A DNA stretch of 64,000 bases, from IMG/VR virus record IMGVR_UViG_3300028482_000001, positions 1-64,000 of that record; one strand, given 5' to 3'. Positions 1-52,673 of the stretch are shown here, one piece after another. Source of the stretch: a virus (taxonomy: Duplodnaviria; Caudoviricetes). Position 1 is the stretch's first letter. Every line of letters begins with the position of its first letter. The position numbers and the translations under genes were made by a program. The notes under the pieces were generated by a model that saw only the letters and a list, made by a program, of their open reading frames with translations, was not told the DNA's origin and searched no databases.

Positions 1-2
1 GG

Positions 3-320
3 TGTATATTAGTTGATAGCGAAGGCGATGAGCCAACATATGAACAAAGAAGTGTTACAAATGTTAATGGAAACACAATTACAATTGATTCAGCGTTTAG
101 TAAAAATTTAACGACCGTTTTAATTTTCCAGAATGATCAATTGCAAAACCATAAACATGAGATAAAATGGCACGCGAATAGTGGTGCTGGAGCCTACTAC
201 GCTATCGGAGATGGAAGCCAACCAATTACAGACCTAACAGTCAATATTGTTGGCGCAAGAGTTGGTGATGAAACAAGATCTAAGAATACAACTGTTCGTT
301 TATGGAAAAGAATTAGCTAA
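3..320 (+). CDS. 3' end of tail fibre / receptor-binding protein (partial, runs in from window edge)
   Basis: Open frame 3-320 translated by hand: ...DSAFSKNLTTVLIFQNDQLQNHKHE...GARVGDETRSKNTTVRLWKRIS*; the ending is typical of phage tail-fibre C-termini. Confidence 0.8.
   Translation, partial: CILVDSEGDEPTYEQRSVTNVNGNTITIDSAFSKNLTTVLIFQNDQLQNHKHEIKWHANSGAGAYYAIGDGSQPITDLTVNIVGARVGDETRSKNTTVRLWKRIS
100..131 (+). repeat. Left inversion (recombination) site
   Basis: GACCGTTTTAATTTT (113-127) is the exact inverse of 581-595; imperfect dyad centred on AC. Confidence 0.85.
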
Positions 321-594
321 TACGTTGCCATAACTTTATTGTGGTATTAAGAGGTTGAACAGTTTTAGAATTGCCATAAATTGATGATGAACGAGAAGCA
401 TCTATATATACTGTATTAAAAGCGGATATGGATGAACTCGTAGTGTCCATTATACGTCCTGATTCAGAACCTGTTTTAGCCTTGGAAAATACACCGCTTG
501 TAACATCTCCCCAAATAAAACCGCAGTACCCATAAGGATTACCAAATTTACCAGTGATATTAGGTAACCCAGGAGCCTGTAAAATTAAAACGGT
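313..594 (-). other. Silent alternative tail-fibre C-terminal cassette (no start codon of its own)
   Basis: Minus-strand open frame TVLILQAPGLPNITGKFG...DASRSSSIYGNSKTVQPLNTTIKLWQRIS*, starting in the same codon register at the inverted repeat as the expressed variant. Confidence 0.85.
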
Positions 595-610
595 CTTTTA
601 TATTTTACAG
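577..610 (-). repeat. Right inversion (recombination) site
   Basis: CTGTAAAAT...ATTTTACAG dyad enclosing the 15-bp inverted copy of 113-127. Confidence 0.85.
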
Positions 611-648
611 AAAAAAGGCTATCTAACAATATAGATAGCCTTTTTTTC
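611..648. terminator. Bidirectional intrinsic terminator
   Basis: AAAAAAGGCTATCTA-acaata-TAGATAGCCTTTTTTT between convergent genes. Confidence 0.85.
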
Positions 649-3480: not shown

Positions 3481-3554
3481 TTTATTTTCCTTATGTAAAT
3501 ATTATGTACAATAAATAAAAAAAAATCAAGAATTTATATAAAGCCTAATTTCTG

Positions 3555-3786
3555 TGTGCACAAGTTTGTGCACAAAATAAACTATGTATAACTATAAATA
3601 ATGTTGCAAAAAAGAAAAAAGTAATGTAAAATATATTAAAAACAGGGATAATTGTGTATAATAGACTTAAAAAGCGTCTATTATAGAGGGGAAAGGGTTG
3701 TTTTATTTATATTAAATCATTACTATATAATGATTTATATTATTAAAGCTTTTGTAAATTTATAGTTTGTGCACATTATGTGTACA
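3555..3786. other. Putative attP region
   Basis: TGTGCACA-type motifs at 3555, 3567, 3768 and 3779; AGTTTGTGCACA direct repeat at 3563 and 3764; these flank the dyad TATAATAGAC-N9-GTCTATTATA (3657-3685) next to the integrase. Confidence 0.55.
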
Positions 3787-4981
3787 AATTTTTAGGTTTT
3801 TTATGGTAAAACATTTATATCAACGAACAATTACACACAATGGGAAGAAGGTTAAGGCATGGTATTTTTGGTTTTTAGACAAAAACGGAAAACGAATTAG
3901 AAGAACTTGTGGCAAAAATGGGAAACCTTGTCTGACAAAAAAAGAGGCACAATCTTTTATAGAATTGTTAGATGATAATGAATTATTAAAAGAGAATATC
4001 ACTTTTAATCAATTTGCAATAAATTTTTTTACAGAATCTTCTTTTTATATAAAAAAGCAAAAACTAAAAGGCTATGAGTATGAAGCACATACACTAAAGG
4101 CTAAACAGAGAATTCTTGATAAGTTTCTTGAAAAATTTGGAGAGAAACTTGTTTCTAATATAACTATTGGAGAAATTGAAAAATGGGTTTTTTCATTGCC
4201 TTATTCTCCTGGTTATTTAAATCGCATAATTGCTGTGATTAATATAGTTCTGTATGAATTGTACAGAGCAGAGCATTTAGACAAAATAATAAAAATGGAT
4301 AAATGTTTAGAAAGAAAAATAAGAAATAAAGGTATTTTATACCCAGATGAAATTAAAAGATTATTTCCTGATACAAAAGAAGAAATTTGCGAAGTGTGGA
4401 GAAATAAAAAAAATACAGATGAAGAAAACTTTACAACAGCAGTTTTGATTTATACAATTCTTACAACAGGTATGAGAGGATGTGAAGGAAGGGCTATTCA
4501 GTATTCTCAATTTATTCAAAAAGATGTTATTCTAATTAATGCAATGCTGAATCACAATGGAGAAAGAGTTGAACATTTAAAAAAGGGGAATGAGATTGAT
4601 AAAAGATGGAGAATTGCGATTCTTCCAGAAAAAACAATTGAATTAATTAATAAAGTGCAAAGGGTAAATCAAAACAATGGAGAAAACGATTATGTTTTTT
4701 CTTTGCATGGCAAACCATTTTCACGAACTTTATTAAATAATAAATTTAAGAAAATCTGTTTAAAAAATGGGATAAACGCAACAGAAAGAAATTTATCAAT
4801 ACACTCGTTGCGTTACACATACAATACGATGATGCGCCATCAAATATCTGGCGAAAGCCTTCGTATGATGCTCGGCCATTTGAATCCGAAAATGACCGAG
4901 TATTATGATAGAGCTAAAATTACAGATAAACTACCTCTATTGTTACAAAACAAAGATGTAATTAATAACATGTGGAATTAA
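3767..4981 (+). CDS. int: Tyrosine recombinase / phage integrase
   Basis: Catalytic motifs TGMRGCE, HSLRYTY, LGH...MTEYY; likely true start MVKHLYQR a few codons downstream. Confidence 0.9.
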   Translation: MCTLCVQIFRFFMVKHLYQRTITHNGKKVKAWYFWFLDKNGKRIRRTCGKNGKPCLTKKEAQSFIELLDDNELLKENITFNQFAINFFTESSFYIKKQKLKGYEYEAHTLKAKQRILDKFLEKFGEKLVSNITIGEIEKWVFSLPYSPGYLNRIIAVINIVLYELYRAEHLDKIIKMDKCLERKIRNKGILYPDEIKRLFPDTKEEICEVWRNKKNTDEENFTTAVLIYTILTTGMRGCEGRAIQYSQFIQKDVILINAMLNHNGERVEHLKKGNEIDKRWRIAILPEKTIELINKVQRVNQNNGENDYVFSLHGKPFSRTLLNNKFKKICLKNGINATERNLSIHSLRYTYNTMMRHQISGESLRMMLGHLNPKMTEYYDRAKITDKLPLLLQNKDVINNMWN

Positions 4982-43472: not shown

Positions 43473-43967
43473 ATGATAGGATACAAAGCATTTGACAAAA
43501 ATTTATGTTGTCGAGGATTCCGGTTTGAAGTTGGAAAAACTTACACAAAAGACACTAAAAAAGAAGATTTAGAATGTTGTACTGACAAAGTATTTCATTT
43601 TTGTCGAGAACTTTTTGCTATAGAAAAAGAAAGTAATTACAAACTTTCAGAATCAAGAATTTGCGAAATTATCGCAGGTGAATATATAAAACAAGACGAC
43701 AAGTACGGAACGAATTCAATTACAATCCTTCGTGAGATTATAGGAGATGAAAAAAAAGAACATAAACAAGAGATAAAAACCTGTGGTGGCTTTTTAAAAT
43801 CTCTTGAATACAAAGAAGCGTTTAGATTGGCTTGGGATAAAGCAAGTAAAGAAGAACATAAAAAACTTCTTAAACTTCCTAACTGGAATAATGAAATTTT
43901 TAAAGAAATTTCTGGAATCGACGCAGAAGCAGAAATAAAAAAAGAAAATAAGGAATTAGAAAAATGA
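43473..43967 (+). CDS. Conserved phage protein
   Basis: GYKAFDKNLCCRGFRFEVGKTY; LPNWNNEIFKEISGI. Confidence 0.6.
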   Translation: MIGYKAFDKNLCCRGFRFEVGKTYTKDTKKEDLECCTDKVFHFCRELFAIEKESNYKLSESRICEIIAGEYIKQDDKYGTNSITILREIIGDEKKEHKQEIKTCGGFLKSLEYKEAFRLAWDKASKEEHKKLLKLPNWNNEIFKEISGIDAEAEIKKENKELEK

Positions 43968-52284: not shown

Positions 52285-52463
52285 TGATTTTTGACCAGAA
52301 GCTCCAACTGAGCATATTGATCCTTATTGGGGAGGTTGTACAGGGGAATATGCAAAAAAAAGAATGAAAGAACTTGAAAATGGTGTAAATGTTTTATAAT
52401 AAAATCTGCAACTAGTTTTAAAAGAGTGATATATAAGACCTTGTTAAACGCAAGGTCTTTTTT

Positions 52464-52673
52464 TTATAATTCTTTCCCATCTTTAAGAAACTTTATTTCA
52501 ATTCCTAACTGATCACAAATTTCAATTATATCACTTAGTTTTAAATCATTTCTATATAATTTGTTAAACAGATTTTGTTTAGAAGTATTTAACTTTTTAG
52601 CTAGATCTGTAATCCTGATATTATTTTTTATGCAGCCAATTTCTATAATTTCTTTAATATTAATTTCATTCAT
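52464..52673 (-). CDS. Small XRE-type HTH protein
   Basis: ITDLAKKLNTSKQNLFNKL. Confidence 0.75.
   Translation of the reverse strand: MNEINIKEIIEIGCIKNNIRITDLAKKLNTSKQNLFNKLYRNDLKLSDIIEICDQLGIEIKFLKDGKEL

Follow-up and report, generated by a model that had tools for sequence, protein, structure and literature searches.

The IMG/VR record IMGVR_UViG_3300028482_000001 is 80,555 bp long, and the window analysed here, a stretch of 64,000 nucleotides, comprises bases 1-64000 of this record. The first 127 bases of the record were repeated at its end (1-127 = 80429-80555), and because of this terminal overlap we regarded it as an assembly closed into a circle of about 80.4 kb. It is the complete genome of a temperate, AT-rich phage (80 kb). 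The open frame cut off at the left edge of the window continued from the end of the record. It belonged to a gene that started at 78562 of G000 (ATG, MSTVSIEQ...), crossed the circular junction and ended at window base 320. As assembled, the gene encoded a protein of 728 aa (P0131/P0121 type) and matched PHROG tail-fibre families. A Baseplate_J gene, then a 344-aa gene, were found upstream of it, and its product can be identified as the baseplate-distal fibre in a tail module of the myovirus type. In this fibre, 660 aa formed the constant part, which ended with ...SAFSKNLT. The features found at its 3' end, together with the only recognisable recombinase gene, are listed in Table 1.

Table 1. 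Features of the fibre-tip locus and the recombinase gene, in window coordinates
Feature	Position	Strand	Remarks
3' end of the constant part of the fibre gene	1..127	+	also the terminal overlap of the record
Left inverted-repeat arm	100..131		perfect core 113-127 (+), GACCGTTTTAATTTT
Tip A cassette	114..320	+	68 aa and stop, TVLIFQNDQLQNHKH...RLWKRIS*; the form expressed in this record
Invertible segment between the cores	128..580		453 bp; 483 bp including the cores
Palindrome ATTAGCTAAT	312..321		tail-to-tail meeting point of the cassettes
Tip B cassette	313..594	-	93 aa and stop, TVLILQAPGLPNITG...KLWQRIS*; silent here
Right inverted-repeat arm	577..608		perfect core 581-595 (-); in-frame TAA at 598-600 (minus strand)
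Hairpin	610..647		16 pairs, flanked on either side by T and A runs; just beyond the right arm
Tyrosine recombinase	3803..4981	+	392 aa from ATG; only recognisable site-specific recombinase in the genome

The preliminary description, which was made from the DNA sequence, had placed two alternative fibre tips between the arms of a perfect 15-bp inverted repeat, extending to 19 bp with one mismatch. The repeat was present at both positions, and the single mismatch of its longer version was a C/A difference at 128. The two arms, 32 nt each, were 84% complementary. The left core encoded T-V-L-I within the conserved junction NLTTVLI. Translation of both strands confirmed that the two orientations are in frame with the fibre, tip B once the segment is inverted, and that they yield tips of 68 and 93 aa, both ending W-x-R-I-S (W(K/Q)RIS*). 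The overlap of the two stop codons within the palindrome was likewise found as described, with stops at 318-320 (+) and 313-315 (-) and an 8-nt overlap of the reading frames (313-320). In the tip B frame, no ATG, GTG or TTG occurred before codon 50, and the TAA of the right arm lay directly upstream. The hairpin just outside the right arm is a bidirectional terminator, which closes the fibre transcript and a convergent minus-strand operon.

A search of the 80.4-kb genome with two mismatches allowed revealed no further copy of the core. Perfect 15-bp inverted repeats within 1 kb occurred at a mean of 0.87 per genome in dinucleotide shuffles, compared with two observed, the other being the terminator outside the right arm. 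Because a 15-bp repeat is near chance in an AT-rich genome, this repeat is meaningful by its position, its reading frame and the observed inversions described below, and not by its length.

The nature of the tips was then assessed by homology and structure prediction. Tip B matched the tail-fibre family phrog_6921 (E=1.2e-6) and gave a score of 16 bits, below the cut-off, with the Pfam family of T4 gp36. In its homologues, a Collar (PF07484) or Gp10_C (PF21939) domain was found just upstream. Tip A yielded no family match, and sequence search with the tips returned nothing from the PDB. AlphaFold2 models of the C-terminus, covering the last 188 aa of form A and the last 213 aa of form B, had a mean pLDDT of 46.7 and 52.4, respectively, and left the tips unmodelled. 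To judge from these weak family matches, the tips are presumably the receptor-binding parts of the fibre.

A search with tip B for longer proteins retrieved P0001, P0002 and later P0138, each of 753 aa. The first 664 residues of these proteins were 97-99% identical to the constant part, after which they continued with TVLILQAPGLPNITG... into tip B. Since 753 aa is the exact length predicted by inversion between the cores, these proteins represent the constant part fused to tip B. Altogether, full-length fibres of 728 aa with tip A were found as five sequences on about eight contigs, and the 753-aa fibres with tip B as three sequences on four contigs. The tip A cluster also contained a 147-aa fragment and two fibres of 742 aa that carried a third tip.

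The DNA of two loci encoding fibres with tip B, L014 and L021, was fetched. In L014 (Logan SRR30535863), 1271 nt were collinear with the computed inversion of our record, whereas the alignment to the record as assembled fell into three pieces, the middle one reversed. In L021 (ENA ERZ27246314), the segment was inverted precisely from core to core, and the flanks shared 99.7-99.9% identity with this record and with L016-L018. The latter three, from ENA assemblies with neighbouring accessions, were in orientation A. Both orientations, as expected of a programmed inversion, were thus found in near-identical genomes (L021 on the one hand, L016-L018 and the record on the other). The invertible tip proposed in the preliminary description was thereby borne out: in near-identical relatives the segment was inverted at the predicted junctions, and full-length fibres with either tip occurred in public assemblies. 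The description had also considered that all relatives might share one orientation, and L021 and L014 carried the opposite one.

Two sequence differences between the arms served to locate the exchange. The outer marker at 110-112, AAC in the left arm and AAA in the right arm, remained with its flank, whereas the inner marker, the C/A difference at 128, travelled with its cassette. Because the outer difference stayed and the inner one moved, the exchange occurred inside 113-127 (G113-T127), on both strands, reciprocally and without loss. Milman et al. 2023 (PMC9881135) have reported that tail-fibre genes are among the common targets of gene-altering inversions.

The ends of contigs were also considered. 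The terminal overlap of our record ended at base 127, the final position that the two orientations have in common, and an arbitrary break would fall at this base about once per 20,000-80,000 tries. If a de Bruijn assembly with k=127 is assumed, which the length of the overlap fits, and if both orientations were present, the 127-mer 1-127 would be a fork node of the assembly graph. In L009 (JGI 3300023044), the constant part was followed by tip A, tip B and the core, and the contig ended after eight more bases. These eight bases matched the reverse complement of the constant part (C_left) at 8/8 positions, compared with 4/8 for the normal right flank. Such a junction would be predicted for the opposite orientation, but a match over so few bases is only suggestive. 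Read together, such contig ends hint that both orientations may be mixed within single samples. Elsewhere, the contigs of L010 (7930-8063), L022, L023 and L019 stopped inside or just after tip cassettes; examples of such end points are 113 nt beyond the site, within the core of the right arm and 12 nt downstream of the stop codon. To judge from these ends, the fibre-tip locus seems to be a frequent break point in assembly.

We consider it very probable that a programmed DNA inversion at this locus switches the receptor-binding tip of the tail fibre. The fibre gene consists of a constant part and one of two stored tips, which lie tail to tail between inverted 15-bp sites. In the proposed mechanism, conservative, reciprocal recombination inside the core would flip the 453-bp segment, and each flip would fuse the constant part in frame to tip A ('QNDQLQNHKH' type) or tip B ('GLPNITG' type). 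The unused tip lacks a start codon and is closed off by a stop codon upstream. Each genome would then specify a single fibre type, and a lysogenic population would give rise to virions of two receptor specificities. We infer that the inversion is ongoing and enzyme-catalysed, and that it changes the host range.

The related loci revealed a variety of tips behind the same junction. L015 expressed an 82-aa tip of the GLPNITG type and stored a 70-aa tip of the QNDQLQEHQH type, of which no expressed form was found by searching. L022 expressed another tip and stored a fourth type, and L014 carried diverged versions of tips A and B. All silent cassettes (6/6, at six loci) were open from site to stop. 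The pN/pS ratio between cassette versions was 0.38 for tip A and 0.63 for tip B. Between the record and L014, the invertible segment (128-580) was 88.9% identical, compared with 98% over 13 kb of flanks. In this comparison, the tips appeared as a local hot spot of divergence or exchange. A divergence of the segment above that of its flanks would be expected of receptor-binding parts.

More distant fibres (716, 397 and approximately 315 aa) were aligned, and the conserved module was found to end with the near-invariant ...VNGNT(V/I)TI.SAFS..LT(T/N)VL(I/V). Beyond it, the fibres fell into two tip classes, which converged again on KN.S...W.RI(S/A). Since the conserved module ends there and the tips diverge after it, the crossover site coincides with the domain junction of the family. 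The 397-aa relative was encoded in L024 (Logan SRR24653933, 9400-10530), which contained four intact tip cassettes behind the same ACCGTTTTA site as in this phage. One cassette was expressed, one lay in direct and two in inverted orientation, and each started with ACCGTTTTARTTGG. The inverted repeats of this locus measured 76 nt at 93% identity. The L024 locus is a small shufflon. At L027 (ERZ808034, 61-1267), a fibre of about 320 aa from the same family lay tail to tail, with an 8-nt overlap, with an antisense cassette running off the contig. The family-profile scans yielded two loci from IMG/VR and three from JGI metagenomes, and searches of cultured phages in GenBank returned short domain matches only. 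One further candidate, G001 (fibre 52% identical), proved uninformative: its contig broke 113 nt past the site, the other end consisted of unrelated DNA and a poly-G artefact, and it contained no recombinase.

To find the enzyme responsible for the inversion, we searched the complete genome for recombinases. The preliminary description had noted that no invertase is adjacent within the window and that the only recombinase seen is a tyrosine integrase 3 kb away, and it had proposed that a serine invertase be sought in the rest of the genome. Profile and tblastn searches extended the first observation to the complete 80.4-kb genome: no match to PF00239 (Resolvase) exceeded the cut-off, neither a large serine recombinase (PF07508) nor an IS110/Piv-type enzyme (PF01548) was found, and tblastn with Mu Gin gave no match (E<=1) to this genome or to the loci of relatives. 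The sole PF00239 signal (52401-52562, 12.9 bits) arose from a 69-aa HTH protein (52464-52673, minus strand), and it was rejected as a hidden serine invertase. The tyrosine recombinase (PF00589) was confirmed at 3.2 kb from the switch, behind six genes, and occupied the same place in L015-L018.

A serine invertase of the Gin/Cin/Pin type would act on 26-bp sites (12-2-12 around AC) and could come from the host or from another prophage in the cell. The Pin enzyme of e14, for instance, can complement Mu gin. The preliminary description had depicted each site as a dyad around a 2-bp AC core. An axis at A114/C115 does exist, and the centre AACG-AC-CGTT resembles the centre of Mu gix, AAACC-TC-GGTTT; the non-palindromic AC core also lies inside the mapped crossover interval, and a 26-bp site would end exactly at 127. 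The symmetry of the sites was, however, weak in this AT-rich DNA, with 9/12 positions per site and 75% over ten sites, and the same axis fits spacers of 2-8 bp equally well, among which the 2-bp core is one candidate arrangement. In L024, conservation was confined to the cassette-side half of the sites, and the outer halves of its silent sites showed no dyad symmetry. Given also that the phage genome itself is devoid of a serine recombinase, we regard such an enzyme as a somewhat doubtful explanation.

The same asymmetry, with the cassette side alone conserved, is like that of shufflon sites and would agree with a tyrosine recombinase. The integrase of the phage might therefore have a double role, attP x attB integration and recombination of the fibre sites: it is the sole recognisable site-specific recombinase in the complete genome, its distance to the switch is conserved in L015-L018, and fibre-tip shufflons driven by tyrosine recombinases exist (Rin, PMC6109161). 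Several findings argue against this role. The genome contains no third copy or near-copy of the site, including the surroundings of the integrase gene, where a core shared with attP was sought; the best other matches had at least 3/15 mismatches and lay elsewhere in the genome. The absence of such a site near the integrase gene is a weak argument. By language-model features and predicted structure, the nearest neighbours of the enzyme were ordinary phage integrases; many came from Spirochaetota, and several contained arm-binding and SAM-like domains, whereas the tyrosine invertase Rin is armless (PMC6109161). A dyad-centred exchange with a 6-8-bp overlap would place the C/A difference at 112 inside the overlap. 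In addition, L024 has the cassettes, whereas neither a tyrosine nor a serine recombinase was found within the 19.6 kb of its incomplete contig. Taken together, these observations make a second function of the integrase unlikely. In the intergenic region before the integrase gene (3481-3766), we observed several TGTGCACA / TGTGTACA palindromes, and the L014 contig stopped at the position corresponding to base 3694 (...GAGGGGAAA). This base could be the edge of the attP core, provided that the L014 sample contained both free and integrated forms.

A further explanation requires no dedicated enzyme: rare short-homology recombination, or template-switching during replication, between repeats of 15-22 bp would invert the segment, and the inversions would persist as strain polymorphisms. 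It would account for an invertase gene not being found in the genome, the repeat is coding sequence common to homologous cassettes, and the repeats of L024 are long enough for homologous recombination. RecA-type recombination, however, normally needs far more than 15 bp of identity, and the 15-bp identity found here falls far short of that. The silent cassettes are start-less, stop-guarded and always intact, have precisely overlapping ends and are kept in several divergent lineages, which also argues against an enzyme-free process. So do the differences by inversion between genomes 99.7-99.9% identical and the contig ends that fall exactly at the core. We therefore judged an enzyme-free origin of the inversions to be improbable.

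For the flipping enzyme, we favoured a recombinase supplied in trans. That an invertase from the host or a co-resident element acts on the prophage is a tentative proposal, to which we give somewhat less than an even chance. An unrecognised protein of the phage itself seems a poor candidate by comparison. A new recombinase was sought among the genes near the fibre, and no unknown gene was common to the cassette surroundings of this phage and L024; the neighbours in L024 included a 417-aa protein with a weak rve/HTH (DDE) match and an IstB-like ATPase. In a broader formulation, the switch would be run by an enzyme with another main job, either an arm-type integrase acting on a second, unrelated site pair or a host invertase, and the junction NLTTVL-I/V would be a portable crossover site across a family with two to four cassettes. 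We consider the arguments for and against this formulation to be evenly balanced.

Compared with known systems, the locus resembles Mu G/Gin, P1 C/Cin, e14 P/Pin and p15B Min in that the segment starts inside a fibre gene with a constant N-terminal part. With all of these systems it further shares two opposed alternative C-termini, a start-less silent form and, on our reading, the alternation of host range. The Mu segment is approximately 3 kb long and carries the assembly-chaperone genes U and U', with gin adjoining. In contrast, the segment described here measures 0.45 kb and affects only the last 68 or 93 codons, includes no chaperone gene and lies in a genome without a serine recombinase. 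Of the features that mark serine-invertase systems, we found the inverted crossover sites, one of them in the fibre gene, and the alternative C-termini, and we found no PF00239 recombinase beside the segment.

The locus also resembles the Rin shufflon of Bifidobacterium prophages (PMC6109161) and R64 Rci, in which a short repeat stands at the start of each C-terminal cassette of a receptor-binding protein. As in the Rin shufflon, the cassettes are approximately 70-100 aa long and inversions are seen between related prophages. The same repeat before each cassette, with inversions mapping to the repeats, was found here, and the cassette repeat was found in L024. Both Rin and Rci are armless tyrosine recombinases dedicated to this task, and their genes adjoin the cassettes (PMC6109161). 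No such adjacent enzyme was found here; unlike in those systems, the sole tyrosine recombinase is of the integrase type and lies six genes away, and neither the fibre family nor the site sequence is related to theirs. The closest published parallel is the inversion of approximately 500 bp between the Bifidobacterium prophages Bb423phi2 and 689b-1, which has no flanking recombinase and for which an invertase acting in trans was proposed (Mavrich et al. 2018, PMC6109161). In both cases, a segment of approximately 0.5 kb includes the 3' end of a structural gene together with a small gene in the opposite orientation, and it is inverted at a short repeat between related prophages. The Bifidobacterium examples differ in their 8-bp repeat and their genes of unknown function, and they belong to siphovirus prophages of Actinobacteria, whereas here the fibre gene is identifiable, the whole genome is available and the invertase is absent from it. 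The locus is thus a host-range switch of an already known type and is unusual only in lacking an encoded dedicated flipping enzyme.

With regard to the host, neither the fibre nor the integrase, used as queries against GTDB genomes, revealed any relatives. Our present lead is the host group Spirochaetota/Treponema, with a fibre family of probably spirochaete phages. A DUF7666-type protein (window 43473-43967, plus strand) was 91% identical to L024:16791-17072, though the two phages were otherwise very different; this identity suggests that they may share a gene pool or a host group. L024 also carries DUF261, which we take to be a family known from Borrelia.

Inversion of fibre tips is a classic hedge between hosts for temperate phages. 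The present locus is a minimal version of it, in which the last 68 or 93 codons flip without a chaperone or an invertase. The example comes from an uncultured, AT-rich phage lineage, possibly associated with Spirochaetota, and both states are already in public data. The finding is also of value for annotation, since assemblers break or circularise contigs at such loci and gene prediction yields a truncated antisense ORF labelled 'hypothetical'. Should the integrase or a host invertase prove to be the enzyme, this would show that a phage can outsource its host-range switching; to our knowledge, such outsourcing has been suggested once, for Bifidobacterium prophages, and never tested. More ACGACCGTTTTAATTTT copies in the host genome would signal a global invertase regulon. 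If a host invertase is indeed responsible, the bacterium, and not the phage, would set the frequency at which the prophage changes its receptor specificity.
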